Shown here piece by piece: positions 4,698 through 55,100 of a stretch of 64,000 nucleotides of DNA. Numbering within the stretch: the stretch's first letter is position 1; each line of letters starts with the position of its first letter. The notes beneath the pieces are model-generated. The model saw only the letters and a list, made by a program, of their open reading frames with translations, did not search any database and was not told the origin of the DNA. Source of the stretch: Candidatus Omnitrophota bacterium (GTDB taxonomy: Bacteria; Omnitrophota; Gorgyraeia; Gygaellales; Profunditerraquicolaceae); assembly GCA_011620275.1 (NCBI GenBank), contig WOZK01000030.1, forward strand, positions 70,242 through 134,241. Reading direction: 5' to 3'. The position numbers were made by a program, and so were the translations under genes.

Positions 4698-4857
4698 AAA
4701 AAAACGCCACAGGAAAAATGTTAAATTACATATTTATTCCGTGGCGTGGAACTGGTAATTGGTATTTCAGGAATCGCGTGTCAAATTGTTAGTCACTAAT
4801 ATACATCAAAAGGAAGATGCTGTCAAGACTTTCTCAACAGACTTTCTTAAATTATTT

Positions 4858-8101: not shown

Positions 8102-8181
8102 GTTATACGCAACAGCATACTGTTACGATCGCGAATTAAGTATCGTGTCCCCGAAGAATAGTAACCGTTATCCTGCCTTTT

Positions 8182-9177: not shown

Positions 9178-9187
9178 CTTCCCTCCT

Positions 9188-9691: not shown

Positions 9692-9729
9692 AAAGACCTT
9701 CTTTCCTTAAGAACAGTTGAGAACTCGAT

Positions 9730-9800
9730 AATCGAAATTTAACCGCAATCGAAATCCTATTCTCGATTCTCTATTTTCGATTGCTCTGTCCGCCTTCGGC
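9730..9800. repeat. Short intergenic hairpin-containing repeat element (copy 1, between ilvB and ilvN). Related copies lie at 13378-13450 and, inverted, at 23301-23345.
   Basis: Shared core 'ccgcaatcg...ctctatttt...cgattgctc'. The inverted repeat 'gcaatcg'/'cgattgc' forms a 7-bp stem. Copy 1 also has 'ccgccttcggcgg'. The third copy shares 'cagagcaatcga' in the opposite orientation. Confidence 0.4.
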
Positions 9801-9803
9801 GGA

Positions 9804-30419: not shown

Positions 30420-30665
30420 TCAGCTTTTAACTTTTCCTGGCGGAACAACGTTCACGAAAGTCCGCATTCTGCCGTGCGGCGTTTTCCTGCGGCTAAAGCT
30501 TACTTTCCCGGGGCAAAGGGCCATGATCGTGCCGATGCCTTTGGTATTCATCCCGGCTTTATAATGACTGAAGCCGCGCACAAGGATCTGCCCGGTCTTC
30601 ACGCTCTCTCCTCCGGAAACTTTGGTTCCTCTGTCTTTCTTTGGTGTTGCTTTTCCTCCAGCCAT
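30420..30665 (-). CDS. rpmA: 50S ribosomal protein L27.
   Basis: 'GGESVKTGQILVRGFSHYKAGMNTKGIGTIMALCPGKVSF' follows the L27 consensus G-x-x-V-x-x-G-x-I-L-x-R...G-x-N...A-x-x-x-G-x-V-x-F. No rplU is adjacent. Confidence 0.7.
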   Translation of the reverse strand: MAGGKATPKKDRGTKVSGGESVKTGQILVRGFSHYKAGMNTKGIGTIMALCPGKVSFSRRKTPHGRMRTFVNVVPPGKVKS

Positions 30666-30679: not shown

Positions 30680-31003
30680 TTATCTTGCTTTAGCCCAAAG
30701 GGCCCTCGCCAGACCCATCAATTCTGCTTTCTCCAGCCGGACCCCGGCGCGGCACAATCCGTCCTCGCGGTTCTTCAATGACCAGACGACCTCCGCCCTG
30801 GTATAAAAAGGCTCGGCCTGTTCGGGGATTTGAAGCCATACCTCCAAACGGGAACTAACCGGCAAACTGCTGCGTGAAGTCAATCCCATACCGTTAGCGC
30901 TGATATCGAAGGTTTCTCCACTGCTTTCTTCGCTTGCCGTGGCCTCCAGAAACTTGAGAGGGAACCGCGCCTGCATCCGTTCAAAAACCCTCCTGTCGTC
31001 CAT
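30680..31003 (-). CDS. PilZ-domain protein (putative c-di-GMP receptor).
   Basis: 'RRVFERMQARF' (RxxxR) and 'DISANGMGL' (DxSxxG) PilZ motifs. 107 aa. Confidence 0.6.
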   Translation of the reverse strand: MDDRRVFERMQARFPLKFLEATASEESSGETFDISANGMGLTSRSSLPVSSRLEVWLQIPEQAEPFYTRAEVVWSLKNREDGLCRAGVRLEKAELMGLARALWAKAR

Positions 31004-31163: not shown

Positions 31164-34100
31164 TCACAGATAAATATCCGTCATATTGCAAACCCCAGAC
31201 AAACCGATACTTATGAAACTTAATGAAGGCAGTGAAAAAGACATCCCCTGCGTATAGAAAGTGGAACCATTCTCCTCGCCGCGAAAGACTGCGTTGTATT
31301 GTTCAACAGGCCTCCATCCTTGCGCAGAATCCATCCCAGGTTCAAGAAAGCGCGCTGCGTCTTCATCGAATATCCCTACCGCGTCCCTTTCGCTGCACCC
31401 TCCGTCCAACGGGTTAAAAACCTCGGCTAAAACAGCCGGCGTTCTCTTCGGATCAAAATCTTTAATAAGCTCATCATTGCCATTTCTTAACGCTCGGATA
31501 AGCTCTTTATCTACGAATTGCCGGCCAAGAATATACACAACCATCCCGTCGATATCTTTTAATTCCCCTATTTTCCCTTGAGCCTCCATCAACTCGATCA
31601 AAAAGATAAATCCGAGCATCGATTGCGGTTCTCTCCGCGTGCGCAAACGGGTAAAAATATTGATTATCGAAAACATCCTGTCCGCCATATAATACAGGCA
31701 GACAACGTTTTGTATCAAAACAGGTCTGATACAATTCAAAAGAAGCAACCGGATCATACCGATAAACGCCTCCGGCTGGTTGTATCCGGCGCGCTCTGAG
31801 AGATAGAGAAAATCTTTTATTATCCCCTCTTTCTCGGTTTCAGCGAGACTGAATTTACGGGCTATTTTTCCGGCAGCCGCATAATTATCAGGTGATAATG
31901 AAGAAAGGATATTACGCCTGTGGCCGGGATAATCATGCTTAAAAGTGTCGATAGTGCTGTATAATGAAACGGCAATGGAATTTTTTTCTTCGGGAACCGG
32001 CCGATTTTCCGCAAGCACCGCTCCGTCACGATATACAACGGAATTAACCGGCACATAGCGCAGAAAACTCAAATAATCCAGTAAAGTCCTGCCTTTGTTG
32101 TCTCCGGAAAGCGCCTCTTCCGGTAATATTATATGCACCGGCCTGTGCTTATTGAATACGGCATAAACGATAAAGATCCCATAGGCCTTAAATATACAAT
32201 CAAATAATTCTCCTCCTGTCAAAAAGACGGTTATGGGCGTTTCAGCGAAACGCGGACATAATCTATCGGCGGAGCCCCGTATCGCATCGACATCCGTATG
32301 ATAGATAATCCGGGGAATTCTCATACATTCGATTACGCAACCCCAGTCTTTTCCCCACACGTCAAGAGCAGCTATCAATTCATCTTCCGCCGCACGGTGT
32401 GATTCTTTATAATCTGCAACGGTAAATACGCCTATTACCCCTCTTCGCCCGCTTCCTCCATCTGCCACAACCGTGCCGCCGTTAACAACCCGTGCCTTTA
32501 TCATTTCCACGTAAGGCGCAATATCGTTAAGTATCACATCCCCTTGATCGCATTCTCCGCCGTCGCCCTTTTGCCCTTGCCCTTTTTCCGCAAGATTGAA
32601 ACCGGGATGCGTTTTCCTCATCTCAAACGCAACGGTTATGCCGAATTCCCGGGCGATAAAATCTACGTACGGCATGGAGGGTTTTTCCCCCGAATAACTA
32701 AATTTTTTCTTAGCCATAGACACTAATATCTGCCTGTCTAAAACAAGCTTCCCCTTCCTTTTTTCCAAGATTCCTTTCCCACTCCAGAACACGCTTAAAA
32801 TCTTACCGGGAGTGTAGCGGGAATTTGTAAAAACCGATACCGGGATCAGCCTCTTCAGGTATTTCTCATCAAATACAAAAGGCCCTTTTTCCCATTGTTC
32901 CCGTATAATCCTCATTAAAACCGGAATCACATAGTTTTGAGTCGCGGGGAAACTCATGGCTGTATTTTTTGTCAAATCAGGCAAACAATAATAGGTAAAC
33001 ATATCTTTTCCCAGTATTCCGCGCCGCTTTAAAAAATCCTCGAAATTTTTATCAAAAACCCGTAATCCCCATTCACCTACGGAAGAGGTGATCATTCCGG
33101 CGTTAAGCTTATTCAGTTTGTTTTTAATAAAATCGTATTTGCCTTTGGACTTACGGCTGATCTTAAGATATTCCATAACCATTCCCGAAGAAAAAGGATA
33201 TCCCAATTCACCGGATTTTATTCCCGCCAGGATTTCAAGTAAGAAATCCAGCGACCCTCCCGGCAAAACAGACAACTCTTCCCAGAATTTATTTTCAATG
33301 CCCCAAAACCGGCCGTTCTCTATTTCCACAACCGGTATCTTATCCATGCCTTTTAATTCTTCGTATAATCTTATGTCGGCCCGCATCCGGAGCAATTGGC
33401 CATACGTACCGTCAAGCAGGGATTGGTGAAATCTACCGGTAGAAACATATTCGCATAACAGCATTTTATCCGCCTCCAATTGCTTGACTATTTCTGCAAC
33501 TGTTTTCATATCCTCCGCACAACCAAAATGCGAGAGCACATCTTCCCGGGTAAAATCCATCTCCAGGAACATTCCGCATTTTCCCGGGATAATAACCGCG
33601 CTCTGTTCGGCTATCCAGCGTATTACGCTTTCCCGGCATACCGATCCTTTTAAATATGCTTCATCTTCCATTAATTCCCACTCTTTCAATAATTCCCCGA
33701 TAATCCTGATCGTTTTTCCGGACACTTGCCTTGCCGAAAAGTAATTTTTATCCTCCGCGCGCACCGCCGCCAGCATCTCACGCATACGCACGGGAGATCC
33801 GCCGGTTATTTCGAAAATTCTTTTCAAAACATGGGATTCCCGGGCGGATAACGGATGAGACTTTATGCCCGCGATAGTCAACCTTCTCCCGGCATTTTTC
33901 TCTTTAAAGAACTTCATAAAACCGATCAAACGGTTAAACCCGCCGGACCCGCCGGATAAAATCATAGTTTGAAATTTATCCGTAACGGAATACCTCTTTT
34001 CTACAACCCCGCTCCGCTCAAGATTCTCCGCTATCGCCGACACCGCGCTTCGGTCGGCGGGAGTGCGGTTTCCCGGAACAAATTGTTCAAGAATATCTTC

Positions 34101-37100
34101 GATGGTAAATACAGACCTTAACAAAACTTCTGTACCGCCCGAAATTACCACACTGCTTCGCATAACCATCCATTCGATTAAATTCTCTTCACTCAACTCC
34201 TTCTTTGACCGCTCATCAACGGCATCATCCGTAAAACCTCCGGTAACCGCGAATCCGCCGTCACGCTGTCTGACCGCGCGGCTATAATCAATCTGATCGC
34301 ACAGTAATGAATACCGGTCCGATTTTAGAAACAGCAAGAGAGGCTCCTGTCCGCCTTCAGCTCTTATTTCCAGCACAACCGGCCGCGGCCGGTAAAGCGC
34401 CTGAATATCCAACCCGGTAAAATGAATAAGCCAAATATACGCATCGTAACGGTCTGCCATCCTTTTAATGATCCGTGGATACATATCGAGCCCCCGGCAT
34501 ATACGATGCCGCCGGCTTTCTTCGTCCCGGGCTTCTTTTATAAAACGCGTATCAAAGCCGAACTGACTGGTTATCCCGTTGCCTAAACGCGGGACCCTGA
34601 ACCTTCGCAAGGCCCTGTTCCCTCCTTCAGTAAGAACCGGCCTGTATTTATGTATGAAATCTCCCACTCGCGCATCGAAAGAAGAATCTTCCAGGGGGAC
34701 ATCAAGCCCGACCGCTTCTGCCAGATATTCTTTGATGCCCGGATATAATTCCTCGTACCGTTCTTGGGTAATCCCTGCGGCTTGATTAACCGCTTTCCAG
34801 TACCAGAGGAACACCCAATCGGTAATAGTCTTTTGTATATTGATCAAAGCGTTCAACAGCCGCGTGTGATAGGCATGGTCGAAATCGAAAGTAAGCCCAA
34901 AATGCGGATAGACGCGCAATTTCCGCACCAGGGTATCGAGATACAGGGGGAAAGACAAATAAAGATTACTTTGCGCGGAGGCCCCGCACACCGGGCCTTC
35001 AATGAGGATCTTGACGTCCTTACTCACAGACGGATGGTTGTAGATTCGGTGAAACGCCAGCAGCTTATCATCGAAGGACGAATACAACTCGCCCCTTAAT
35101 TCATAAAGCACCACTCCCGCGGGTTTTTCTCTCTGTATGGAAGCAAGAAAAACAGCCAGTTCCCGGCAATAGGATATGTATACGGCAATTTCTTCCGCTG
35201 GAAGCGAAGTTATACTATTAGGAGAATGCACGGAGACACACTCCATGCCGAAATCCTGCCTGATCCCGGCCAAAAGCATCTTCATATTCTCCAGATCATC
35301 AAGCTCCGAAAGAGTTCCTATAAATAATTCGAAAGTGCGAAAATCCAGCCTCCAAAGCCTGCGCGCCTGCTCCAGATTGGCATCCAACGCGCATTTACCG
35401 CTGAATACTACACCTAATTGTCCGGTCCCGCCGTCCTTGTCCTTTTCTTCCCATCCCGCCTTTTCTTCCACCGCTCTTTTATCCCTTTTCCAGGAAACGG
35501 TTTTATATAGCGCATACGCCGCCGCTCCCACGGCCAGTAATATATATTCACATTCCAACATATGTTCACTCCATACCCCGAGATCCTTCACCGCGGAATT
35601 AAGGCTGTAAACCATCAGCAGATATAAATAGCCGTATCCGAACGCCTCTATGGCTCTGTAATATATCTTCTGCCGTTTCTTCTCAATTTCTTCCGGTTCC
35701 CAATTCTTTACCAGCTCCAGCACAAAATACGTAATGACCATACCGGCCGATAAAGCGGCAACCGTCAAGTATGCCCCGTATAATTGCAGAGATACAAAGG
35801 TATTGACCAACAACGCCGGGCCGGAGATCAAAGGAAACGCCAACGGCATAATCCAATAAGGAATACGAGTGAATGCGCAGGGAATGGGAATCTGCGGAGT
35901 GATGTATATGAACAGCAATGTTACGCTTACGATTTTCAGCATTCCCAACGCGGAAGGACTGACAGCCGCTCCGGTATATCCTATAAAGACGTAGAATCCC
36001 CCTATCAAAACCGAAACAAGCAGCGCTCGCCGCACTCCTTCTGTTTTCTGGCCGGCATTCAAGTTCAATCCGCCGGGGCCGGTAATGGCCATAAAAGAGG
36101 CGAGTAACCCGGGATAACTTATAGCCAGGATGTAACCGGCCAGCACGACCACGAAATCCGCCGCATAATCCGCGCCGATAACGGCGAAATAGGGTAAAAA
36201 AGGCGCCCCCGCTATAAACGCCGGAATAAAAAACCCCGTTGCGTGTATCCAGGCCCAGCGCGCGCGAATGCTCACTCTTCCCGCGTACGCGCGCCAGTAC
36301 AGCCTGTCCTTCCAGCCGCCGTCAAGATGTTCTTTCCCGTCCGCATTGGGAATAGGGCCGTTATCTATTAAGAAATGGACGCCGGCTGATGGTAAAGAAT
36401 TTAGCTCGGGCTTAAGGACAGGCGCATTTCTATATACCTTTACCGAAAAAGCAGGCAGCACCATACGCCCATGTTCCCCTGCCCATATTACTTCACTTGT
36501 CGAACCGCATCCCCGAGAAGTAAACCCCGTTAGAGAACTTCGTCCTCTAACGGTTTGCTCTGACGGTGGCATTAAACTACCGTCAGATTGGGAATCGGAA
36601 GACCACCTACTAAAGTCGGTGGCTTTCTCTAACGGGGTAAACATGCCGACACTCTGCAACTCTTCATTCGCATAATCGGTAATTTGGCGATCCGTCGACC
36701 TGATCCGGCTTATATCTACGCACACAATCCGATCCCCGACTTTTCTGTATGCTTCCACCATCGGCAACGTCCAGACGATAATCAACCCGTCTTCTTTAAC
36801 AATCCGCCCAAGCAAGTCAGCAACGTATTTTTTAATATCAAAGTCCCCGGACAAATCCAGCCAGCCGAGGCCTTTTAAGACTAAATAATCGGGCTTCTCA
36901 TCGGTCAAATATCCATTCTCTTTTAATCGCGCCAGTTTTTCTTTAATAACTCCAACTTCTCTCGCATCAACCGCTATATTGATGAATGAATCGAAACAAC
37001 GGATACGTTCATCTCCAGAATTATATTCGCTGTCGAACAGTCCGGAAATACCATTCCTCACGGCCCCTACAGTTTGAGATGCCGCGTCCTTCATTGTCTC

Positions 37101-40100
37101 CGGAGTGATATCATTCCCCCGGGTATCTTCATCGAGATTGACGCTGATAATTATTCCCGTATATGCTTTTTTTCTTGTCGTCAATGCCGCGAAGGGAACA
37201 AAATCGCCTCCGGCCAGAAGATAAATCCCGGTTTTCTTTTCTAAACCGAATTCTGCCACGACTCTTTCCCACAAATATAAATATTGGGTCCAAGCATCTT
37301 TTTTTGTTGGCCGGGCATTTCCGCCGTCCGTATAGTCAGACTCATCTTCCACGGCTGACGCAAGTCCTTCTGCCAGCATTAAGGCATGTTTCTTAATCTC
37401 GCCCTCCGGTAAATGCGGAAGAGTCGTTATGACTTCGTCCTGAAAACCTTTACGGGCAAAGTGATATGTTTCTTCGGGAACCCCCTCGATAGAAGCGGCA
37501 TTGAGGTCCTGGATCATATTAGGAAAGAAATTTTCGAGGAAGTAACCTCCGGTAACTAAATCCAGATACAACTTGGGCGCAGCCAAAAACTCATATCTCA
37601 GCAGGGAGAAAATCTTCAGCCAATGATAAGATGTCCTTCCTATTTCCAGCGCGTAGGGAATAATCTCCGCGGTCTCATTACCGGCTGTGCCGCGGCACAA
37701 CTCGCTCATAATTTTGGCCTGGACATACGGCCACGAATTCAAAGCTGTGAACTCATCACGGCGCATATCCGCCTCCGGCCACTGTCTGCACAAAAGCTGT
37801 TGAAGCGCGGCGTCTGCCGCGTCACTGCCTGTCTGCTCGCCGAACGGCAGTTGTCCATCCGAATCAATCCTTCGACGCAATTCATAACAATGACCGGGCC
37901 TGAAAACGGCTCCGTGTATATCCACCAATATCCGGACATTCCCTGCCGTATTTAGACCAAACGCTGCCGCTGCAGGCTGAATACCGGGTCCGCCGCGAGC
38001 GGTCCAATAATCCGGAATTATTGTTTTATCCGAGAACAAAACTTCTCCCCGGACATTTTCTCTCCGCACATTGCTGTCGGTTACCGACAAGGTTTGAATG
38101 ATCCGATGCAGACTCAAGAAAGGCATATTCACGATAAGCTTACCCTCATACATTACCGCGGACTGCCTGAACATAAGTAACCTGTCTGATTCCAGAGGTT
38201 TTTTCTGCAGAAGCGCGAGAAATCGCGGCATATCGAATGTGCTACCTGCGCGCTTTTCCTGAACGCCGGATTCATTCAATAACGCGAAAATTTCGCGGAA
38301 CATCTCCCGGAACTCATCCCAAATATCCGAAGAAACAGTCAATATTTCTTCCGGGCCGGAAACAGCCGAACGTACTTCCTGATCAATCCGCGCGTTAATA
38401 CGCCGTGTCTCGTGCAGAATATCCTCGATTCCACGAAGCGAATCATCACTTCCACCGTCTTTTTCATCCGGATGCATCGCCATCCAGAAATCGACGAACA
38501 AGTGTTTCCGTAGATGATCAATGGTATGGGGATTGCTAATACGCAAATATGAAAGGAGGAATACGGCAGTGCCGACGGGCAGTGCGGAAGCTCTGCTTCT
38601 CGGGGGGCCGGTTTTACTCTCTAGGTAAAGTCCGAATAAGGCCACGGCTAAAATACCGGTTTTGTTCCGCAGGGCACTCCCGGCAGCAATATAATCTTTC
38701 AATTTCTCGAACTCAGCCGCTGATTCAGGCCGGCTCTCTCGGACGAAACGCGAAAAATCATCCGCGCTCAAACCTCCCGGATTCCCCTGGGGGATAACCG
38801 CGTCTATTCTGCGCGCGCATTCCTCAACAGCCCCGCCGTCTGAAGCCGAATCTTCCTTCACTTTTTTTTCTTCCTTTTCCATTGAATTCACATTCCTGAT
38901 CCGTTCGGAATCTTTTAAAACACTCCTCTTTATTCCTTCATATAACACTTCCCGCAGCCGTTTAACGATTGCGTCTATGAAAGGCGCATTACCATATATA
39001 TCCATAGCCCGCTCGGGATAACCGCTTAATCCCGTTTTAACATTTCTGTTGCCTCCGTCGCCGAAAGTTCTCTTTTCTTCATCCCCGATAAACGGATAGT
39101 CCCACTCTTGCACAAGTGAGCTGTTTATACGCTCTACAATAATACTTCCGGACAAATCAACATTGACTTTCAGCAAACCGTTCAACGCGAAACTAAAATA
39201 TCCCCGGTCTTCATTGCAAAACACAGGGTCTTCATAAACCGCAGATATCACATCATGCAAAAAGCCGGCGTATGTTTCTTGCTGTTGCTCCGATGTACGC
39301 GAAGAAATATGCTCGAGAGATTCGAGAAACCGCTCTCTCTGATAAGAAGCTGCGGGCTTATATCCTTTCTCCTGCAGCTCCGCTTTCACCAGATTATCCG
39401 CACGTAATAGGACGACCAACAGTGTATTGATTATATACTCCAGATCTTCCAGGTCCCTGATGTCCACCGCGGAAAGTCGATTATGTAACACCTCATATAA
39501 TCCACGCGGAATCACCACGGTTACTTCTCTACTCATATCCGGCGTATATCCCTCCTGAAGATTTTCAAGATAGAACCTCCTCTTTGTAAGTATCCGCCAC
39601 AAGCCTTCGTGCTGCTGAAATTCCGCTATGATATTCTCCCAATAGGGATAAACGAAAATTGAAAGATCGCCTCTATAGGAAAGGCCTGTAAGTATAGGAA
39701 AAAACACAATGAGACCTATGGCCATTTCTAAAGGCGTTCCCAACCGGATCAAATATAACCCTATAATCGAATGCATGAACGAAGGCAGAAGAACGGCAAA
39801 CATATCTTTGGCAAGATTTTCCGCGGGCAAACCGCATGTTGACATAATATGATAACAAGAAGCCTGTGCTTGGAGTCCAAGCAAATCATCCTTCTTCCTT
39901 TGGGGAACCGTTGAACTGCGTACAAGTGTTTCAAAATCACCGCGAAATATGAGTTTTTCACCGGCGGGATCAATAAAAAATACGTTCCACCATTCTTCAT
40001 CCCCCGCTATTTCCAAAACCTTTGCTCTATCGACAGCGAGCAAAGCATTCCTGGATTTGAACAGGGATGGGAATAACCTCTCCAATGCCCCTCCTCCCTC

Positions 40101-43100
40101 ATAGCGCGATACGACAATCCGCAGCCGCCTTTGGCCAAATAGTGTCCCGGCGCAATAATGAATAATCTCATGCCCTATACCTATGCCCCAGAATAAAGGT
40201 ATTGCGGCCGCAAGAAACAGCATGACCGATCCCCCTAATCCCAGGCCCCAATGAGCGCTCAGAGAAAAACCCGGTAGCAAACCGGATACGAACCATCCCC
40301 CCGCAATAATCGCAAAAAGCGCCAACCGGGAATAATTGAATGATATCTGCCGCGCGCCCGCGAAATAAAACTTGCGCATAAAGTGATGTGGCCTGGAAAT
40401 CGCTCTATCCCCCGGGTTATCGGCATACGGCCTGCCGCCGTCGCCGTTCTGTGCGCGAGGATATCCTTTCAGCGAGGACATTATATGGTTTGCCAATGTT
40501 TTGCGTTCCCAGAAATTTGGGCTTCTACGGTCGGCTTGCTCATGTTTCAGAATCACCGGCAGAACAATCCGGATATTCTTGCCCGTCGGATCGACATCCA
40601 GAGATCCCATACCGAACTTAAAAAACAGGTAAGTATATTTATTTGTTGGTCTGCTATCTACGGGCTTGCCCGCCGCGTAAGCATCAGCGAGACAAGTTTC
40701 GCCATGGAAGCTTTCGGCGGCGAGGCTCGCGGCTATATTCAGGCGTATATAATCAAGCGGATGCGCTAAAATATGCTCAAGAGCCTCGCCGTCTCCACGG
40801 CTTATCCCGATCAAATCATCGATGATTTCTCTTTTGGAGTCGTCCGAAATACGCGAGAAGATTTCTTCTCCTGAACACCATTGGATCTTATAGTGTGTCG
40901 ACGCCTCACCCCATTTCTCGCTGTATTTTTTTATCCGGCTCAGATAAACAAAGAACCTGCCTACTATTTCTTCTCTGCCGCTGAGAAACAATACTCTCGT
41001 CTGATCGTCATCCCCGCCTTCAGGGCCTAAGCTATCAAAAAACATCAATTCCTTGAATAACGCATCCCCACCCCATTCCTCGTCATTCCACTGCTCTTCA
41101 AGCCAGTTCTCCAGCTCTTGAAGGATAGACGAATAGTTAATAGGGAAATCCCCGTCACACAAATATTCACCCTCATTGATAATCCTGTTTTTCCCTCCGT
41201 CCGGATTATTAAGCCGCCGCTCTTCGCGTCCCACGCCAGACATCCCCCCGGACTTTTCTGCCACCATTGTCAGGATACGCGCAAGCTTTGCCGCCTGCTC
41301 GCTATCACCTTTCTCTATCAATTCCAGGATCCGCTTTTCAAATCTTTTGGCAATAAATCTTATGTCATCGTCCGGCAAAGAATAGAATTCCCCGAATCTG
41401 CAAATAGCGTCTAAAATAACGGTGTTATCCGAACCCAGCAGGAACGGAAATAGCGCCCGTACTTCCCTCCCCTCCAGATAAAGCAGATCGCGCGGCCTGC
41501 GGTCCTGCATGATCAGCAGGCTTACTTCATGGGATAGATCATTCACTCTTATCCAGGTGTCCTCAGCAGGTTCACGCCGCAGTTCTATAAGAGAATCTAT
41601 AAGTTCAAGGAACAATCCGGACAATTTCTGCTCCCATTCAGCCCCGCCGTCAAACAATTCCTCTGCCCTTTCCAGACGCGCCGTCTTTAGCGCCCTTATT
41701 ACCGTCTCGGCCTCCCCGGCTATCGCCGATATTTCATTGTCGAAGTAGAGCTCATCCGCCTGTCCGCAGGAAGCCGCGGCTCTTTCTATGGAATCAACTC
41801 CCTGCGGACGCAGAAGCTCCATTTTGAGAATAAGACCTATCTTCTTCTCCCAAGATAGGCCTGCTGTCGAACCAAGAAACCGGCGACATTTCATCCGCCC
41901 CTGCGGCGCTCTCAAAGGTGTGTTGCCTTCGAGTAGATCATACACGTCTTTTTCATACGCTTCCGCGGAAACGCTTAAAAGATCATAGGTGAACTGTTCC
42001 AACGCCCCCTCCCCGAATTCTTCCGCCGATCTACGGTTGAATCTGCTGTACGGCGTCATCAAATGCTCTCCCTGTTTGCGCAAGAGGATACCGCGAAGTT
42101 CATAGTCGCGTCCCCATGCGGAATAGATCGCTATCTTCGGCGGCCAATCCACCCAGGAAACATGCCCGGATATGAAAGAAGCAAAGGAACCAAGATAACT
42201 GTCCGCGGCGATATGCCTGGAATTTATGCCGTCAAGGTAGTATTCATATGAAAACCGGCTGCGGGAAGAAATCAGATGAACGATATGGGCGTTCTGCAGC
42301 GGCAATGTCTGTAAAAGACTATGAATTTCAGCGACGCAGAAAGAAGAGTCGTCGATATAATACAATGCGGGCGGGGCGCGCGAAGAATACAACTCTGCGG
42401 CCAGCATTTTCGCCTTCTTCCCTTCGCCATAACCGCAGAAACGGATATTTCCCTCCGGAATATCAATGCCGGCGCTCTTTAATACCGCGAGAGTCCCCGC
42501 TTTCGTGCTTTCATCACGGCCGGTCAGAACGACAATTCTCAAGCCAAGGCGTTCAGCCGTCTTTAGAAGATGATCCGCCCCTTCCGTCATCCGGTAAATA
42601 CCCAGGCGCACTCCCAATCTCTCTACATCAGTATATTCTTTCATGGCTACGCTTTTGAGCCAATCCACCTGTTCCTGCATCCAGATCCCGAACTCTTCCG
42701 GCTCTTTGATCTCCCCGGAGCTGTATATATTGTTCTGTATGCTGTCCTTGATCATATAATACCGCCTGCGTATAAAATCCGACGAAGGGTAATCCAGTGT
42801 CGTCCGGAGCAAAGTGTCGTCCAGGTCCACGATAAGCACCCCGCCGCTTACAGCAGTCCTCTCCATATTGCCGGCCGCTTCAAAAAGGCTCCCGGTGGAA
42901 AAACTAACCGGGCCTGCCCCCCCGTCATTTTCGCACGAGCGAATACTTGGCCTTCCGATAGGCCAAGGTAAAATCCGACACTCCGCGGAATAATCTGCTC
43001 CGCGTTTTTGCGCGTAGGCCGGCAGATTATTTATGCTCCTTAGATAACCGATCATACCGGAAAGAATAGCGGCCTCCCTGGTGTCGTAGTTTTCTAACGT

Positions 43101-46100
43101 TCTGTCTATGATTTCGCTGGTACAAGCCGACAAAGGCGTCTCGGTGGAGCGTATCAAAAGAATTAACTTGGACAGGTCTATACCGCAGAATCCCAGGAAA
43201 CGCTTGAATCCGGAAGAAGAACTAATCAATTCTATTGTTTTCTCCGGTTGCGGCGCTATGGATGTAACGGCGTTGCAGCTATGAAGGATGCCGCTGATAA
43301 CCGACAATAATGCATATTCAAGGTTGTATCTTTCTTTAACGGCGAAAATAAGGAATAGATACCCTCTGCGCGCCGGGTCATAATTCTTCAAGAAGCCGCC
43401 GGCGTTCGAATACTTAATATGGTCGAAAACCCACATCAACGGTTTCAACTGGCGGCCTGTAACCTGATAAGTTGTCTTCAATTGCTCGAGTATCAGCCCG
43501 CAAGAAACGTCGAAATCTGGCGTCCGTCTATCGGCGTCTCTCCCAGAATAAGAAACCAACAAATCCGCCATCTTTCGCAAATCCCCCGTTTGCGAAAGTG
43601 AAATCTCCGCCTTGAAGAAGTCATTTTCCGGCAGTAACTGATGGGAAACAACCCGGACTTCTTCATTAAGATACCTTCGGGCATCACCGTCCGGCAGGGT
43701 GCGCTTTAAACGCACCTGTCTGCCGATCCCCTCTTCATATTCCATACCAATATGGCTCAACTCTATTCGGTCAAAGCCAAGGCTGAACCAGCGTTTGATA
43801 GTCTCTCCCAGGCGGAGTTCTTCCGTGCATATTCCGGAGGTGCTCATCTCATCTATTCGCTCAAAGGCGTGAAAACGGGGATTATACAATATTTCCTCCA
43901 GGGCGAACGCGAATATTTTCCTGCCGAAACCGCTCTTTGCCCATCGTTCCTTACGTATGGATATTTTTCCCAACGCGCAAGTATTTCTCCCTTGACTGTC
44001 CTTAGAAACCGACACTTCAAAAGTCAGCACCCCGCGTCCGTCATCCGCGGCCGCCCTGTATATATACAACCCTCCCCCGGCCGGCCTCAGATAAGACACA
44101 TTCTGCTCCGATATGCGCATCCCGTCCCTGTAAACGACCACCGGCCCGGATCCGCCGTCGTGAATATCTTCCGCGGAAATCCCCGGTACCGATATCAAAC
44201 CGTTAATGCCCGTTATATCTTCAGCCCGCGCCTGGCGCGCTGCCTTCCGCCATCGCTCATCCGGCACTGCCGGCAGAGGCGTTTTCATCTCTTCAACGTA
44301 ACCGAACAAGCCCGCTTTCATGACTTTACCGAATATAAGCTTTCGATCCTCCACGCGTACGCTGTCACACCTTAGTGTCGCGAGGCGGCTGCGAATAATC
44401 TTCCATAATTCTCTGCTGTCGATACAAACTCCAGTCATCTCAAAGTAACCGGCAGTCGGAAAGCTATCTCTGATATCATCAAAAACAGCGCTTAATAACA
44501 TCCCCGCAGAGACAGAAGGCGCGCCAATGCCTTTATAGATCGACAAATCCATCATTGTTCCCGCGTTGGCCTCGAAATAGAATTCCACTGTCCCCCATTT
44601 GCAACCGCAGATAACGTATTCTCTCCCATCTTTCCCAAAGATACGAGTTATACGCAGGCGAGAATCTTCAAGACCAGTATCCTCCCGGATCAACCTGCCG
44701 CCGTCGGGTAAAGAAATAAAATAATCCCCTCTGTAAGCCCGGTTTAAGAAATTATTCCGTTGGCAATATAGTTTATTCAGTTTGTCCTCTCCTGATTCTC
44801 CCGGGCACAAGAGATTGAGAATCATATAATATAGACTTTCTCCGTTCCTCCCGGCGGCATCAAGGGCCACTCCACTACCGGTAATTTCCTCCATAAGAGG
44901 CTCCATCAATAAATAGCCCGGCCTTAGTGTTTCATCCGAGAAAATACGGTAAAGCTCCCCAGGGACTCTTTGTGAAGACACGAATTGCTTTAACCTCGGC
45001 AGATCATCCCAAGGACAGGCGAATAAAGTATCTATCCCGTCTGTTTGCTCAAGGCGGCCCTCAGCGGCATTAAATTTCATTTGATCCATCTGCATACGGA
45101 CGGCAAAATATGTATCTCTTCCTATTTCTACGCGTAATATCCTCACTCTTTCCAATATGTTTTCTGTATAGAAATAACGCATCGGCAAACCTAAATCGAG
45201 ATCTCCGACACAAACAGTGGTAACACCTGACAAATCATTTATCTTCCCGGTTTCGCGGAAAACTATTTCACCGTTGGGTGAATTACCGCATTCCCCGCAG
45301 CTTATTTCCTTACAAATAAGATCACCATAGTATTCGCTTAAATTCCTCTCCTTATTAAGATTAACCGCAACCAGGTCTTCCAGTTCTGCTGCGTAAGGAA
45401 CAATGCCCCGTTTTCCTAAGATCATTGCATCATACGGGCTGAATCCGGCAAGATAATCCCGCTCTTTAAACCCGAATTCTGCCATAATATGCGGAACCGA
45501 CATACGACCTTTCCCATACGGCAGCAATAACGAAAGAACTCTAAAATGGTCAACATTGATATGCAATTTCTTCATCCCTTCTATTAGAAAATGCGGCATA
45601 AGGCAGCAATCGCCATACCCGCAACTCAAAACCTCTTGAGGAGAAAAAACATCCACGTTTCGCTCGATAACACCATATTTAATATATTCCCCATAACCGT
45701 ATTTATTCCAGTCCAATTTTTTATTCATTAGTTCCGACAACTTCCGCAGCGCTATTGGTAAAGCTGTTTTTTCTCGGCCGCCGTCCTTTTCATCCGGATG
45801 CATCGCCATCCTTCTTATCTGCCACTCCGATCCCAATTTATCCCGGCCTTCGGAAACGTCGCGTTTGGGATTACTTATGCTTATGTAAATATCGAAATTG
45901 CCGTCGGGATAACAATCCTTCAGTTTTACGAACATCGTGTTTATATAACGCTCCACTTCGTCCTGTATTTCTTGTTTCGCATTCGGGTAGGAATATTCCC
46001 TCCATTTTATATTAGTCGTTTCCTTCGCGTATCCGGGAGCCATATATAACAGGAGGTCTTTATACTCTTCCAGCGACAAACAAGCCGTCACACCGTCTTC

Positions 46101-49100
46101 ATCCCAGGAAAACCGTTCCGCAAGCGATATACCGGAAAATGGATGCAAGGATACTCCGTTGTTCCTCACAAATTTCTCCAGATAATAAGAAATTCCTCCG
46201 TTATCATTCTCGGCGTGATAAACAAAATTTCTGGCACTGTTCAATTCCCTGGAATCCGGCAAAGACGGCAATACGCCGCGGTGCGCGTCGTATAACAACC
46301 TGAAAACGGAAAACTTTTTATTGAAGCCGGCGGTTTGTTCATAGAAGTGTTTCAGGAGAGAAGAGAACTTGAATTCATATAACGTATGAATTCCCTGCCT
46401 GTTCCGGCCCAGACCGTCGATCTCCTTCTCCGCGGAATACTGAGGCGCTCCCGTACTGAAGTAAAAAACTCTGCTTAATTCCCTGATGAAACCGATATCG
46501 ACCTCGTCGCGGAATACCAGATTGAATTTATGCACCCCGGAAACAACTCCGAGAATCCCCCTGATCCGGGAAATGTAACGCCGGTAATGCTGCGGGCGGA
46601 CTTTCGATTCCTTCCGCCTGACATCGCCGACTATCCGGTAGAACTCCTTGAATGTATCTATTCCGTAACTCCGCAGAAAAGCATTTCCCCGCTGCCTTCC
46701 GGTGCGTATCCCCCATATGCTTTCCGCCGCCAGTTCATCCATTTTCCTCAAGAACACCCCCATATCGACATCCGGCATAAGGACATCCCATAGAACGATG
46801 GCTTCGAGGACATCAAGCAAATCATCGAAAAAGATAGACGTATTTCCCTTGTTTTCCCGGATGGAAAAATAGGCGAATTCAAGGCATAAAGCCGCCAGCG
46901 TCCCTTCCGTAATATCAACCTTATGCCTGCCGTAAGTCTCGAAAAGGGAGGCAAGCCGCCTCCGTAAATATGCCGGGTTTGGAATATACGCGTCAATATT
47001 TTCTCCGAATACACTGTTATAAATCCGGGCCACATCGATATCTTCCAATGCATCGTTTATTTCCGAGAGAACGGCAACAGCCGGATATCCATACCCGCCG
47101 GCATCCCTTAGGATTGTGTCGCGTTCTTCTTTATGCAAACGCAGGAAAAAGTTGGTATCCTGCCTGAGTATATCCTCCTCATCCGCGGAGTTCAGTGAAT
47201 TAAGCTGATGCCGGAAAGCAAAAGTAAGGATATTATGCCTGTTACTGTTAGAAGGTTTAAGCGCCGCATCAAAGATAGAAACCGGAAAATAAACAACGCC
47301 GCCGCGTCGCTGATAAAGAAATATATTATTCTCTGTATCCTTGTAGAATACAAAAGAGAACTCGGTTGTCCGTCCCTTGTCTGCAAAAATATTTCCCCAT
47401 TCCTTATTTTTCTTTATCAAAGAAAGAGAATTCTTTATAACCTGCCATACTTCGGACTCGCGGTAGCCATCGCAGGAATCGATTATTACATCTTTGTTTA
47501 CATACTTCCCCGAGACAACCGGTTGTAAACTTACCTCCGCCCTATCCGCTTTCATATCGCTCTCGCAAACCCCGCGTTCCCCGCCGTCCGCCGTTTTCCC
47601 GCTGTCTGACAGTAAAGCATTATGGAAATCTTGTGATATATTATTAGGGAAAGAACCTATAATGAGAGGATTCAACTCGTCATTTTGGAGGGAGAATTCA
47701 TAAGGAGGTAATCCCTTGTCTATAGGCGGCGCGCGCGAGGGGACTTTTCCTCTTGTTAAAATATCATAAATGGAACACCGGGCCTCTTCAGTCCGGAGAC
47801 CGGCAGGGGGATTCATTACAATGGACGTTATCGCTTCAAACGGATGAATCCCCGCTATTTCATCTCGTGACCCTCCTGCGATATCCTGAACTACTCCGCA
47901 CCTGCCGCCGTCTTTGGCGCCGCTACTATTAGCCCCGTTATGTTTAGACACAACCACAGGTACCAAACGTTTAAATCCGTATCCGATGTATCCTGGATGT
48001 GTATTGTAGAAATTGATAATTTCCTGTATATAGGAAGAATTTTCCGGTATCTTTAAATACACCGTGCCGGTGAAATGGATACGCGGATCGCGTTTTTCTA
48101 ACGCGTACAAAGAACGGCAGATTTCTTCGACCTGTAGAAACGGTATATTATCAAGCAAAGAGGTACCAGACTCGTGCGTTTCCAGAATTTCCGCCACCCG
48201 GCCCCAATCTTTATCTAAATAAGCTATCAACAAAGGGTTAAAATCATTTTCAAATTCAGAGTTTTTCTCTATAGTGCGCAGATGAGCAATGATCGCGTAG
48301 TGTCTTATCCAGGAAAAGTCGGACCACATTTTCACTTCAATCCCCGAAACCGATATTCCTTCTTCTTCCTTGTTTGGCGCCTCGATAATACCGTCAGGCA
48401 ATCCATATCCTTCTCCACATATACCATTGCGTACCAACATCTTTTCCACATCCTTTTCTCCGCTGGTAGCAACGTACGGCTTACTGGTAAGCGCTGCGCG
48501 CTCAAAGATAAAAGAAGGCTGATCCGATATCTCAAGTTCTTTCTTTAAACTGTCCTTAAGTATAGCGATGGGTAAATCCACCCTAAGGTGATGGACTGTA
48601 AGCGGAAAATTTTCTCGGAAGAGCATTTCAATTACCTGAAAAACACTTCCGATTCTGCTCATATAAGTAAAATTACGGCAATCGGGTTCAATACCGAACA
48701 TGCGCCACACGCCCATCATATCCTTTAATAGCTTCAAATCGCCAACCAGTTGCAAAGAAACCGTGGAAATAAGGATATTGTTTTTTTCTAGTAATTTGAC
48801 TCTCTTGTTAAGTTCGCCTTCAGCTCCTGGTGAAAGAGCTAAATGAATAGTCTCCCGGCCTACAGGCAATCCCAGTCTGAACAGGGTGTGGCGCGCCCGC
48901 AGTCTCCCTTCATAAGAAATATCCGATTTATGTTCTTCTTCTGCCCGTTCAGGCTCGCTTTTATCAAGTTGTTCTTGCGCCTTGCCGGCCTCTTTAAGAA
49001 TACGTCGGGTATTCTTATTTAAGACTTCTATGATATCCGAAAAATGCGGTTGATATGACCGAGAGTCTTTCATCACACGGTATACAGCTAAAGTCAATGC

Positions 49101-52100
49101 CCCGAGAGTAAGCTTGCGCGCTCCGGCAAATTCACGCAAAGCCTGAAAGCTTTCCTTCAGCTTAATACTAAGCACATCCTCTTCGGATAAAGAATAATCT
49201 TCGCTCTCTTGCGCGTCAGATACCGCGGCGATCGACGCTTGTGCGACGTTGTGCCAATAGAGGGCGAACAGCAAATCACGTAAACTGAGCGTCTGTCCGG
49301 CCGCGGAATAAATATCACGGCCTTCCTGAAGAACTCCTTGGATTAAAAGCACTAATTCGTCCTCGGCCTCTTTCCGGGTTTGATATGCCAACCCTTTCGG
49401 ATATAAAAACCCGCCGCAATAATGACGCTGCGCTTTTATTTGAAATAAAGAGCCTTTTCTACAGGCTTCTTCCAAATATTCCGCATTACTATCCGTATAA
49501 TAGGACTCAATCTCAGCCGCAATGATGCCGATGGTAAGTGTAAGGCTGACGCGGGCACTCACTTTTTCATCAGGGTCGTATACCGTATACACAAAACCCT
49601 TCCGATCGGAATGCCAATAAACAATCATCCCGCCTTTCCTGGCCTGTTCCAGAAACACACGCGCGCGCGCGTCAAAATGAGCCCGCTGGGACGCCGTGTT
49701 CTCCCCGAAATAGGGGATATCATTATAAAACGCCTGCCTGGCAAGGCTGCGCAGAGGTTTCCCGTATTCAGAAGACCAGCGTAATGGAGCAGGCCGGCGC
49801 CCGGGATTTTCACAGAATACCGCATCCCACATATTCACCGCCATATATAAATCTCTATACCGGTCCTGCTTGACAAACCGTTCAAGATCGGCGCCGTAGA
49901 GATCCACAAGGACATTCAAGGCCTGTTCGGGGATCTTGCCGGAAAGAATCAAGACCTCAGGAGATGTACGCAGAAGAAATTCTTTGAGTGCCCGATTCCT
50001 CTCACGAGACAATATCTGCCGCAGACGCGGTAGAATATTTTTGTTATCGGCCCCTCCATCTTTACCTGTTCTTTTACGCCCTCCGGCCGGTTCAGTATGC
50101 CCGCCGTTTTTTTCTTCTCTTATACCTGTATTTAGCCGGGGGGAAATAATTCCTTGCGCGTCAGAGCCCTTCCGAATTTCTAACTCATATCCGCCGTCCT
50201 TGGTATTCTCTAAAGGCAGATTCAATACTGTTTGCGAAAATAGTCCTAAAATGTCCGTCTGGTTCCTTTCTCCGTTATATACTATTCCTTCAATAATCTT
50301 CACCGCAATATTGTTCAACCATTCCCCCTCCGGTCGGAACCCAAACCTAAGATAAAATATTAACGCGCCGGCCCCTAAAGCATCCGGGTTGTTAATCTGG
50401 CAGGAAGGAATAATAAATCTGTCCAACATGTATTCGTTATTCTCAAAAATACTGTTTACGACCGCCAGCCGCGAAGGAAAGATTTCCCTTGCCCTGTGTT
50501 GTGGCCTGTATTCCTTAAAAAAGTGCATACCTAAAGATAGGTCTCCTCCAAATAAATGGCTGAGACCGTAACCAATTATTTTCTGTGTGTTCTTATCCAT
50601 AAAAATCTCGAGAAATCCTTCCAAGTTGATGTCTCTTTGATCCGGGATTAGAACCAAAGAAGTATTTTGGTCCAACTCCGCCCGGTAAATAGTTTGAAGA
50701 TCCAAGAGACCAAGATTCGCCAAACTGTTTTTTTGTCTAAGTAATTCCACGGCAGGGATGGATAGAGTTTCAGCAGATAATCCGGTTATTTTATTGACTT
50801 TTATCTCACAAGGACGACGCAGTAATTCTCGCATCTCTTTGGGAAGCATCCACATCCCTAATTCCCAACGTAAAGAAGGAATCCCCTGACCGGAAGCAAG
50901 GAGCGGAGGAAATTTTCTCCCCCCATCCATTCGATCTGTCACCGTTACTCTCCCACTTCCCAGCACACCTTCCAACGGACACGATGTCTTTTTTATATTA
51001 CCCCCGTCTAAATTGCCGGAGACACCAGCCTGAGGTCGGGGTTTGTCAGGTAACTTTAAGGCTATATAGAAACAAGTTATCGCAAGCCCCCAGCATGTTC
51101 CTGCCGGAAAATCTAAACCGGAGAGATACGATAATAAACCTAAAGGTATAATCATGCCTGCCAGGATTAAATATAGAAGCGGACTCTCTTCCTTGGACTT
51201 TTCCGCAATATCATCTTCGCTTATAAACAATAATACCGCGGCCCCGAATAATGTTCCGCCCCATACTCCCTGAATCACAAAACCCGCGAGCATAAATATA
51301 AAACCCTTGATTGCGTGAACACCTCCGTCACTACGGACTGCTCCCGAAGATCCATTGTCTGTGTCTTTCCGCTTTATTTGCGCTTTCCACCATTGCGGCA
51401 GACTGGAAACCGGGATGTTTATATCATATTTCTCCAATTGTTCCAACCCGGTCCAATCACGTTCCCATAGATGCAAGATGGCGGGGGAAGCTATCTCTCC
51501 CATCACATACCAGTCGGGAAAACATTCCACAAAAAATTCATATAAACGTGAATGTATTAGCGAACCATAACCTTTGTGTTGGAACTTCCAGCTCATTGCC
51601 AGATTCTTCAGCCAGAGAGTTTTGTTTTTATTGACCTTTCCCGCTTTTTTCGAGAAAGGAAAATTAGTAAATTCAAATAAGAAAAGAATACCTTTATTGC
51701 CCGCGCCCACTTCATGAACATAAATAGGATTTGTCCCAATCTGCTCATATCTCGCCTGCTCAAGGATTTCCTTTTCAGCAACCAGCAGCCGGATCTCAAA
51801 AAGCTCCTTTTCACCTATTATCCTGACATTCTTCATATACGCGTAAACCAATGTTCCTTGACCCGCGGTATATTCATATCTCCCGTTCCAGAACGAGGCA
51901 CGACCTCCCTGAGGATAATCTTCACGTATTAGTACTCCTAAAGGTCCCCCGTTCTTAGATTCCAACTCCTGCCCCAAACGCCCCAGCCAGGAATAATTCT
52001 CAAACATATCCGCCCGGGCGCCGCCGTCAAAACCGAAAGATTCATCTCCCGGCTGATATATCCCTCCCCTTTCTCTATACCGTTTCAACAACGGCTGAAG

Positions 52101-55100
52101 AATATTGCAGGGAATCGCCCAATGCAGCTCTCTCACAGGCGCGTCTTTCCGCAACAGTTCCTTGACATAGGAGGAACTGACATTTGTATAAACATACGGC
52201 ACCAAGAATACTGTCGGTATCGAAGGAGCCAGTAAAAGGTTGGCCCAGGCAAGCGGAAGTTCGCTCTTTAGATCCTTATAGTCCCTGACCCCGCGCCGAA
52301 ACACCCCCGCGCCAAAACTGCGCGCGCAATCAACCGTCAATCCGTCGTAACAAATAACCTTTACATTAGTAATCCCGGCGGTTTTCAGGCAAAATTCGAT
52401 CATCGCTTTGTTCTCCTGCCGCGAAAACCACTGCTTCCCCTCCTTATCCGGGTTGGGACCGATACCGATGTAAACAGTATCGAACATCGCCACCGCCCTG
52501 CGCACTACTTCCAGGTGCCCGTTGGTGAAAGTATCGGCAGACCGGGAATCGTCCTTAAAATACCCCGGATACACGGCAATTATGCCTTTGCCTGTTGCAT
52601 CGCGAATGGGTTCCCGGGAAAACCGTAACGTTCCAGATGTGGATAGCGAAGACTGCCGTTCCCCGCCGTCACGGCTATTTTTGCGCAAACTGCCGGCCGC
52701 TTCTCTTTTAGCGGAAAGACGATGATGGAAAACCTTGAACCATCCGCGGTGTTCCTTTAGGAAATTATACGCCGCACTCAACGCTTCCTGAAAACTCAAA
52801 TCATTTTCGATGCCCGGGTAAATTATACGGTCTTTTAGACACTCCATAGTCTTTGCCGGAGAATATCCTTCCTGATCAAGCCGCATACAGAGTTTCGCTA
52901 ATAGAACAAGATTATCCTGGTACAAACTAACATCCCCTTTTGAAAAGCGCGCGGCCAAAGGAACTCCGATCTCCAGCACTTTACATATATGGAATATTCC
53001 GGCGTCCAGTAATCGCTCCCCCATATCAACGGCAGGTTTGACCCATTCGCCGTTGTATCCCTCTAAGGCCGCGAGCATCTTTGGCAGGGCTCTTTCACAT
53101 AGATAGTTAATGCTTATTCTTAAGGTCTGCGCTTTTTCAATCAATCCGCTTATTGGCGAAGTCGGAGGAATAACAGAGATTCGTTCGGTGGTTTCCCCGC
53201 CGTCTTTTTGGGCCTTTTCCTGTTCCTGCCTACTCACCTCTGGAAGAATACGCCTGCGTATCTTTAAGAGGTATTTTTTCTGACACGGAACCCCAGCCTT
53301 CCGTACTGCCTTATACAAATCATCGCCATTCAAGTCGCCTTTCTTCTCGATCACGTCTAATATTATTTTCTTAAGCAAATAATCTCTCGCTTTACAACAC
53401 AAATCCTTCCAATCCTTAAACCAGTCGTTACGGCATTTATGAAAAGCAATTTTAATTTTCGGGTCGTGTTTAAATACTTCTGTTTTAGAAATGGGACTTG
53501 CCTTTCTACTTGGCCCTCTCTGAGCGCGAATTTGTTCTAACGCGGCGTTAACCCTTTGAAATAATTCTTCTTGAGTCTTTATATCCTGATAAATATCCTC
53601 TTCATTAGTTATTTGCAATATAAACAACCGGAACCGGCAGTCTAAACGATATTTTCCTCCATATGGAGCAGGCGACAACAACTTTTCTCCTCCGCAATCA
53701 AGCTTGCCTACCAGCCTGCTGAAGAATTTGTTATTCATTAAAATGTAGGAAAGCTTCCCGTTCCACCTTTTAACTTTGGCCACGTAGATCTTCTCATTTG
53801 GTTTGGTGTTATGCGCGACAGCTGTCAACACCTCCCGTTCATCTTGCGATAGCCCGTTCCAGAGCGGCATGAACATCTCAGAATCTACCGTTTGCTCTGC
53901 CTCATGCGTTCCGCCGTCAAGAACATCCATACTCCCTTTTTCCACACCGGCCGGAAAATCAGGCTTACCATCCGCTCTATACTTCCGTATCTTCATCTTT
54001 GATATCTGGCCGATGTACAAAAGATACAGGCCGGACAACAGTTCCCGGAGTATAGGATCCATGAAAGACTCCGGCGTGTAACCGCGGGAAAGAGCCACGG
54101 TTATTACATATGGCTTTACCTTTTTCTCTTCCAGAATCTTACAGATTCCTCGGATCTGCTTTCGTAATATCCCCAATATGCCCTCTATCTCCGCTTCTTG
54201 CTTGTCTTCAATCGGGCTTATATTTTTATCCCAGAAGTAATCGGCGTCGAAATCGAGGATCACCGGTTTGCGGTTCAGGCTGAAATCCGGCAGTTCATCC
54301 GTATAAACCTTGTGCACTTTTATTCTACGCACCGCGCCTACCGTTATATCCCATCCTGTATTTTCTCTGAAATCCATCACCCAACTTCCTTCTTCCAAAG
54401 GATGAACCGGCCGGAAATAAATCACAGGATGCGTTCCGGTGCCATTTTTAACCGTCAGGTCAGCAACATACATATCGATCTCCTTCCGCTCACTGATAAG
54501 AAAATTGGCGAAATAACGATAGCTGTTGACGGGTTTGAATATGGGCGAGACATCGGGATTCCAATAAAGATATTTTCTTCGACCATCACGCATATACTCC
54601 GGCAATACCCAGTATATCTCATCGACATATCCATCATATACGGCCGGGGATATAAATTGATCAAAGGCGGGGCGTCTCCGGGCGACGGCCTTGATACTTC
54701 GAGACAACGGGTAAAAATCCCAAATGTCGCACATATCCTGATGCGTGTCAAAATGTATCAAAACAGCAGGATTGGTAATACGCTTCAGGAGCCTGCCGAT
54801 CTCCCAAGATGAAAACGCGTCCCCATGGTTTTCCATAAGAAACATCCGCGGAGCCTTGGAAGGACCTTGAACCTCAAAAATGCTATCCCTCCCTGCTTGC
54901 AAAATCGTTTTTACTAAAGAGGACCGGCTAAAGCTCTCCCTGCCGCCGCGTATAGTGTCTCTTACGGCCGAATCTACCGCTTCTGTACTTACCATCCCCT
55001 TTTTTAAAGAAGCATCTCTTGGAGTCACTAATTTCCCTTTGCCGCCGTCCTGTTCACGGGCATAACCACGGTAATTCTGCACAGCAGCCGCTCCGCCTTC

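Follow-up and report, generated by a model that had tools for sequence, protein, structure and literature searches.

Whether the giant proteins of Omnitrophota work whole or are cut into pieces is an explicit open question (10.1101/2023.11.21.568195). A 33-kb gene in a 64,000-nucleotide stretch of Candidatus Omnitrophota DNA (contig WOZK01000030.1 of assembly GCA_011620275.1, positions 70,242 to 134,241; hereafter the window) puts that question in a more specific form, namely whether one such protein carries a protease that could act on itself. The encoded protein offers two handles on processing: the tripeptide Asp-Gly-Gly (DGG), a sharply defined mark that falls together with domain boundaries and exchange junctions, and one HExxH motif, HEIIH, the single in-cis candidate for a cutting enzyme. 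HEIIH lies inside a predicted transmembrane (TM) helix of a DGG-bounded module, in a stretch that is otherwise free of charge, and a histidine stands at the same depth in a later helix. The reading put forward here, with a probability of roughly 0.35, is that the module is a divergent intramembrane metalloprotease resembling the site-2 proteases (S2P), at best a new form of that theme; it is not a demonstrable member of family M50 or of family M48.

A buried HExxH motif in a four-helix module

The minus-strand translation of 31164..63962 is a single open reading frame (ORF) of 10,932 amino acids (aa), within which the HExxH module and its parts are placed as follows.

31164..63962, minus strand: giant ORF, a mosaic of enzyme-sized modules split by DGG tripeptides (from the ORF list and translation)
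39060..40442, minus strand: HExxH membrane module, aa 7841-8301 (461 aa), which opens with a DGG and ends immediately before the following one (bounds set by DGG positions)
40434..40442, minus strand: upstream DGG, aa 7841-7843; the relative P0001 is unrelated before it and homologous from here on
40332..40433, minus strand: basic N-terminal linker, aa 7844-7877, with six Lys or Arg residues and HH at 7866-7867; predicted cytoplasmic (charge count)
40269..40331, minus strand: TM1, aa 7878-7898, running in to out (hydropathy)
40134..40241, minus strand: TM2, aa 7908-7943, out to in; a long helix that holds HEIIH and ends in YCAGTLFG, followed by QRRLR (hydropathy and charge map)
40158..40172, minus strand: HEIIH, aa 7931-7935, putative metal-binding and catalytic motif, identical in the relatives L001 and P0001
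39807..40133, minus strand: cytoplasmic insert, aa 7944-8052, with basic residues and the probable strand LRIVVSRY, then EGGG (sequence)
39744..39806, minus strand: TM3, aa 8053-8073, in to out; holds H8064 (hydropathy)
39672..39731, minus strand: TM4, aa 8078-8097, out to in, with E8079 near its outer end (hydropathy)
39666-39668, minus strand: D8099, just past the cytoplasmic end of TM4, in RGDLS
39060..39671, minus strand: C-terminal part, aa 8098-8301, mainly helical and cytoplasmic
39051..39059, minus strand: downstream DGG, aa 8302-8304, where the next module begins

HEIIH is the sole HExxH in the 10,932-aa protein, and the peptide quoted for it in an earlier sequence-only reading of this DNA, PLFWGIGIGHEIIHYCAG, stands exactly in the translation. 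The bare motif is explicable by chance, since composition alone predicts 0.22 occurrences and at least one appears in 20% of shuffled copies of the giant protein; it is the setting that is unusual. With TM helices called by Kyte-Doolittle hydropathy and oriented by a charge map under the positive-inside rule, the module has four hydrophobic helices arranged in two hairpins, TM1-TM2 and TM3-TM4. Across the 65 residues from 7880 to 7944 the only charged residue is E7932, the Glu of the motif, and HEIIH falls 8-12 residues before QRRLR, which closes TM2 on the cytoplasmic side. The sequence-only reading had put the motif at the end of a hydrophobic helix; the helix is borne out, but HEIIH is embedded 8-12 residues inside its cytoplasmic end, as an HExxH within a TM helix of the M50 kind would be. 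The further helices expected about 110 aa downstream are TM3 and TM4, which start 118 aa after H7935.

The basic segment before TM1, the uncharged TM1-TM2 loop and QRRLR after TM2 together place both ends of the module and the 109-aa insert in the cytoplasm. A topology check, proposed along with the motif, finds HEIIH outside any soluble loop and in the cytoplasmic leaflet of an out-to-in helix, by hydropathy and charge. The search for a third metal ligand yields three plausible candidates, namely H8064, some 11 residues into TM3 from its cytoplasmic start and hence at the depth of HEIIH; E7955, 20 residues past H7935, which is the spacing of thermolysin; and D8099 at the cytoplasmic end of TM4. 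The hydrophobic windows of the giant protein (Kyte-Doolittle at least 1.6) comprise 368 residues and three His, with H7931 and H8064 both in the HExxH module, and the number of HExxH motifs expected within those residues would be far below 0.01. Burying H, E and H inside a helix is costly. The depth-matched His and the uncharged surroundings of HEIIH favour a functional polar or metal site, and the odds lean modestly towards such a site and away from an incidental motif.

As a mechanism it is proposed that the two hairpins, with both ends of the module and the insert in the cytoplasm, would hold HEIIH two to three helical turns inside the cytoplasmic leaflet of TM2, with H8064 of TM3 at equal depth, and that the two would form an intramembrane metal site, probably for zinc, that opens to the cytoplasm. 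Both His of the motif and a third ligand would hold the metal while E7932 would activate water, and the module would be a highly divergent metallohydrolase working like a site-2 protease.

Relatives, selection and anchoring

The whole 461-aa module is present at 88% identity, with HEIIH intact, in an independent assembly (L001, contig JBAZDY010000059.1 of an Omnitrophota metagenome-assembled genome), and the module and its motif are therefore not an assembly artefact. Identity to L001 rises to 93% across the TM core (aa 7870-8110) and is 84% across the wider shared region. The ratio of non-synonymous to synonymous substitution rates (dN/dS, Nei-Gojobori) against L001 is 0.33 for the module, indicating purifying selection, and differs among its parts: it is 0.39 in the C-terminal part, the least constrained, 0.24 in the cytoplasmic insert, and 0.12, from 3 non-synonymous and 8 synonymous changes, in the TM1-TM2-HExxH stretch, which is the most constrained.

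Wider searches returned little else. HMMER over 1.84 billion representative proteins found three fragments only, all from Omnitrophota and 72-91% identical, and a scan of genome contigs for the module found one locus. Two metagenome scans, one of them with the degenerate pattern GHExxHYCAG, and a scan of viral contigs found no relatives of the module, and word-indexed protein searches, run with the full module and with its core, stayed empty up to E<=10. The module is an orphan confined to a few close Omnitrophota relatives, and it has no paralogue within the giant protein in an all-against-all BLAST of the DGG modules.

The relatives' giant genes are mosaics. In L001 an ORF fragment of 3,268 aa (2-9805) shares only about 900 aa with the giant protein (aa 7438-8346, 84% identity), and P0001 has modules of the window in altered order. 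P0001 also carries, at its aa 1609-1793, a short form of the module: at 91% identity it comprises the linker, TM1, the HEIIH-bearing TM2 and some 55 aa more, after which an unrelated run of about 45 residues leads to the next DGG. It could work as a minimal unit, be a remnant in decay or stem from a chimeric assembly.

That P0001 retains only the TM1-TM2 hairpin, with the parity of membrane crossings preserved, would also fit a simpler role, in which the hairpins merely tether a cytoplasmic giant to the inner membrane, parity being kept, and HEIIH is incidental. The motif would then be the one-in-five occurrence expected at such a length, catalysis is backed by no family, structure or informative conservation, and the giant protein has two other TM modules (aa 4212-4318 and 9214-9509) that lack a catalytic motif. 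Moreover, 94% of long Omnitrophota proteins have TM helices or a signal peptide, and many are anchored in the inner membrane (10.64898/2026.06.07.730766); if the motif is inert, the module is one of the lineage-specific membrane anchors of Omnitrophota giants. An anchor does not by itself account for three ionisable residues buried in an otherwise uncharged 65 aa together with a depth-matched His in TM3, when the other TM windows of the giant protein are nearly without His or Glu, nor for the constraint on the HExxH-bearing stretch, the strongest in the module. Simple anchoring is, on this evidence, a doubtful explanation of the module, if by no means a far-fetched one.

Protease families, structure and other metal sites

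Several results weigh against the protease reading, and beyond the motif and its layout in the membrane nothing marks the module as a protease. Pfam searches with the whole module and five sub-fragments at E<=10 gave sub-threshold noise only (FA_desaturase at E=0.09, DUF5982 at 0.045 and, in the C-terminal part, DUF7593 at 0.025), NCBIfam and PHROGs held no family match for the module, and the Protein Data Bank (PDB), searched by sequence with the single sequence and with a two-sequence profile, gave no relevant match. Single-sequence AlphaFold2 (AF2) models reached mean confidence scores (pLDDT) of only 37.9 and 45.9, and Foldseek with the better of them returned only meaningless matches to helices, the best at an E-value of 1.1; the secondary structure of the insert, including a probable beta-hairpin, WWNVFFIDPAGEKLIFRG, after EGGG, comes from these low-confidence models alone. 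Because only near-identical relatives (72-91%) were found, their shared H, E and H are uninformative, and the dN/dS values come from a handful of substitutions, eleven in the case of 0.12. The short form in P0001 does without the beta-hairpin, TM3, TM4, H8064 and the C-terminal domain. To these must be added that a protein so long has a 20% chance of containing an HExxH, and that HExxH-like motifs embedded in TM helices also occur in non-proteases, the best Pfam near-match being a desaturase His-box region.

A direct comparison with M50 was made with a profile built from 10 fetched RseP/M50 proteins (L002-L011), run as a hidden Markov model (HMM) with all filters off and by hhalign. All 10 reference proteins have HExxH in their TM1 and a later motif [NT][LIM]xPxxx[LF]DG(G/S), here abbreviated N-x2-P-x3-LDG, which the module lacks. 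The HMM scores the module at -5.4 bits (E 0.9 at Z=1, a single target), with its best local alignment falling exactly on IGHEIIHYCAGTLFG, and hhalign gives P=0.049 and a probability of 1.1% over 40 columns that comprise TM2, HEIIH and the following strand, set against RseP residues 3-42. The best local alignment is the same by both methods and lays HEIIHYCAGTLFGQRRLRIVV on RseP and keeps Gly at +8, as well as the strand after it, in register. With scores of -5.4 bits and 1.1%, M50 membership was rejected as unsupported.

Two further assignments fared no better. Membership in M48 fails on the position of HExxH inside TM2, on the lack of an ExxAD motif in aa 7936-8301 and on the lack of a Pfam match, and a membrane fatty-acid desaturase or hydroxylase, which would need three His boxes (HxxxxH, HxxHH, HxxHH), fails in that the region of the first box alone aligns and the module has no HxxHH. 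The sequence-only reading had seen in this locus the layout of an S2P/M50 or M48 zinc protease. Of that proposal the layout survives, in four helices with HEIIH in the cytoplasmic leaflet, and the family assignment does not; the HMM check has likewise assigned the module to no non-protease family.

A buried metal site need not belong to a protease. The motif could form part of a zinc lipid hydrolase of the PAQR or alkaline-ceramidase type, of a His-box di-iron enzyme, or of a metal-transport site such as the HExPHE of LIV-1 ZIP transporters. H7931, H7935 and H8064 could make a three-His site within the membrane, such as PAQR-type hydrolases have, the substrate closest to the site is the lipid bilayer itself, and the sole Pfam near-match for TM2 with HEIIH is the first His box of FA_desaturase, below threshold. 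No HxxHH boxes are present, however, the module has 4 TM helices, not 7-8, and there is no PAQR, Zip or desaturase match at any reported threshold. Furthermore, a Glu immediately after the first His is a signature of zincin proteases, not of PAQR, Zip or desaturase proteins. An intramembrane metal site of such a non-protease kind is unlikely, and rates below the divergent S2P-like metalloprotease.

DGG punctuation and the cutting question

The tripeptide that bounds the module recurs along the protein, with 37 DGG observed against 4.2 expected, and is likewise in excess in the relatives' fragments (8 against 1.2, 10 against 0.7 and 3 against 0.7). Information is confined to the three residues, with a relative entropy of 3.6-4.1 bits at D, G and G, while all flanking positions between -10 and +12 stay at a background of 0.3-0.8. 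No domain recognised by Pfam or PDB runs across a DGG: the 214-aa module 3765-3978 encloses an entire CoaD (PDB chain residues 6-157 of 159), and an entire NadB-like enzyme likewise lies between consecutive DGGs. The giant protein's DGGs stand in hydrophilic linkers, not in TM helices. Homology of P0001 to the HExxH module starts exactly at the upstream DGG, and that of P0003, another relative, stops about ten residues before the downstream one. Since domain boundaries and the relatives' homology breakpoints coincide with DGG, the tripeptide marks module boundaries, and since each breakpoint either meets a DGG or precedes one by no more than about 10 residues, the DGG-bounded modules behave as exchangeable cassettes.

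At the nucleotide level, GAC encodes the Asp at 34 of the 37 DGG sites, as against 34% GAC and 66% GAT among the Asp codons of the gene overall. A nucleotide signal was nonetheless rejected, because the bias is mostly codon context: GAC already makes up 71% of Asp codons where D-G is followed by a residue other than G. There is no enrichment of Met, Val or Leu start codons after DGG. Along its coding strand the giant gene has 35 copies of GACGGNGG, 34 in frame, against 3 on one strand and 0 on the other in the remaining 31 kb of the window.

The sequence-only reading had speculated that the embedded protease processes the giant protein itself at its recurring DGG sites. By Pfam and PDB, no other protease domain, C39, caspase-like or otherwise, was found in the giant protein or in the three relatives' fragments, nor was one found in the 64-kb window; with no recognisable protease elsewhere in the giant protein, the HExxH module is the sole in-cis candidate for DGG processing. 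The HEIIH site faces the compartment that holds the DGG linkers, and the topology does not contradict the link. A signal of three residues, D-G-G, would also fit primed-side (S1'-S3') recognition by a zincin. Two general properties of proteases speak against it: cleavage at Gly-Gly is typical of cysteine proteases (C39, Ulp/adenain), and S2P-type enzymes cut hydrophobic or TM segments, not hydrophilic linkers. All told, it is improbable that the module is a membrane-embedded, in-cis zinc protease of a new family that reads D-G-G as a primed-side signal (X|DGG) and severs the surrounding giant protein at its 37 DGG linkers. If it were, dozens of ordinary enzymes would be released from one 33-kb gene, and a cellular genome would encode a polyprotein that processes itself in the manner of viruses, a mechanistic answer to the question of whole or pieces.

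If DGG is cut at all, there is an even chance that the work is done by another enzyme, either a Gly-Gly cysteine protease of the C39 or Ulp/adenain kind or an Asp-specific protease encoded elsewhere in the genome. This explanation is independent of what the HExxH module does in the membrane, be it anchor or non-protease metal site, and would make of it just another cargo module. It accords with the Gly-Gly preference of the cysteine proteases and with the hydrophobic substrates of S2P-type enzymes, and C39 is a peptidase that recurs in Omnitrophota giants and has been proposed to cut them (10.1101/2023.11.21.568195; 10.64898/2026.06.07.730766), cleavage by C39 or S8 domains having been put forward for these proteins (10.1101/2023.11.21.568195). 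On the other side stand the lack of any C39, caspase-like or other protease domain within the searched sequences named above, and the point that information confined to D-G-G would also suit X|DGG recognition by a zinc protease. DGG punctuation is unmentioned in both Omnitrophota giant-gene papers (10.1101/2023.11.21.568195; 10.64898/2026.06.07.730766), and a literature search found no report of a metalloprotease or of DGG punctuation in Omnitrophota giant proteins.

The giant protein and its surroundings

The domains recognised in the giant protein by Pfam and PDB are a full NadB-like L-aspartate oxidase, a xylose-isomerase-like TIM barrel, UPF0489, a full-length CoaD and a weak HAD domain; most of the remainder has no Pfam or PDB match. 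A class of 'multi-enzyme metabolic cluster' giants has been described in Omnitrophota (10.64898/2026.06.07.730766), and the present protein, with more than 10,000 aa, many unrelated enzyme domains, three TM modules and an Omnitrophota host, matches that class.

Several smaller features of the protein may be recorded. Two adjacent N-terminal modules, aa 161-341 and 342-517 (62412-63482, minus strand), are paralogues at 28% identity (E=7e-13) and form the sole clear internal duplication. An identical 11-residue sequence, MAMHPDEKDGG, closes two otherwise weakly related modules, at aa 6052-6062 (45777-45809, minus strand) and aa 8494-8504 (38451-38483, minus strand), and the roughly 30 residues before it are 44% identical. 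The two other DGG-bounded membrane modules are

51009-51329, minus strand: second membrane module, aa 4212-4318, with about 3-4 TM helices in 107 aa
35436-36323, minus strand: third membrane module, aa 9214-9509, with about 6 TM helices

and no family matches either of them, save for MarC, below threshold at E=0.011, in aa 9214-9509.

Otherwise the window is an ordinary Gram-negative chromosome, with rpsB, tsf, pyrH, frr, lpxB, an MsbA-like ABC transporter, ilv/leu, metK, ahcY and pfk, and the order from lpxB to the giant gene recurs on a Logan contig from SRR10568503. Two small genes follow the giant gene immediately, on the same strand, and may be co-transcribed with it:

30680-31003, minus strand: 107-aa PilZ-domain protein (E=4e-10)
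30420-30665, minus strand: 81-aa L27-like protein

Farther off, an ORF of 793 aa (730-3111, minus strand) has a phosphoglycerate kinase domain at aa 86-511 and about 280 unannotated C-terminal residues; the adjoining 517-aa ORF (3144-4697, minus strand) has no family match.

Comparison with known systems

Three groups of known proteins resemble the module in part. The C39 domains are the proposed in-cis processing enzymes of Omnitrophota giants and their Gly-Gly specificity would suit DGG; they differ in being soluble cysteine proteases of papain-like fold, and none is detectable in this giant protein. The first His box of fatty-acid desaturases, the HExPHE of LIV-1 ZIP transporters and the three His of PAQR proteins resemble HEIIH as HExxH-like or HxxxH metal motifs at or in a TM helix, but these proteins have more TM helices and further obligatory motifs, both absent from the module, and the FA_desaturase match stays below threshold (12.9 bits against a cutoff of 29.7). 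The M48 enzymes HtpX and Ste24 are membrane-anchored with an HExxH that faces the cytoplasm, and HtpX has four TM helices, as the module does. In M48, however, the catalytic domain that carries HExxH is soluble and has a beta-sheet upstream of it, and a Glu some 75 residues farther on, in a motif of the ExxAD type, serves as third ligand, whereas the module's HExxH is inside TM2 with neither ExxAD nor a Pfam match.

The closest comparison is with the M50 site-2 proteases RseP, SpoIVFB and MjS2P. The differences are plain: profile similarity is not statistically significant, the N-x2-P-x3-LDG of 10/10 reference M50 proteins is missing, a 109-aa cytoplasmic insert stands where the short re-entrant beta-loop would be, PDZ and CBS domains are absent, and the module is embedded in a 10,932-aa protein and is no free-standing enzyme. 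The zinc-binding Asp motif of the reference proteins reads (L/F)DGG in 9/10 of the fetched sequences, the same tripeptide as the giant protein's punctuation, which is probably a coincidence. The likeness lies in architecture. RseP has the same N-in orientation, with HExxH in the cytoplasmic leaflet of an out-to-in helix, and in the module, as in the M50 enzymes, HExxH sits in such a helix near the cytoplasmic face and leads into a short hydrophobic turn, then Gly at +8, basic residues and a probable strand, while a later out-to-in helix ends near the acidic residue D8099, a topological analogue, though merely that, of the Asp of LDG.

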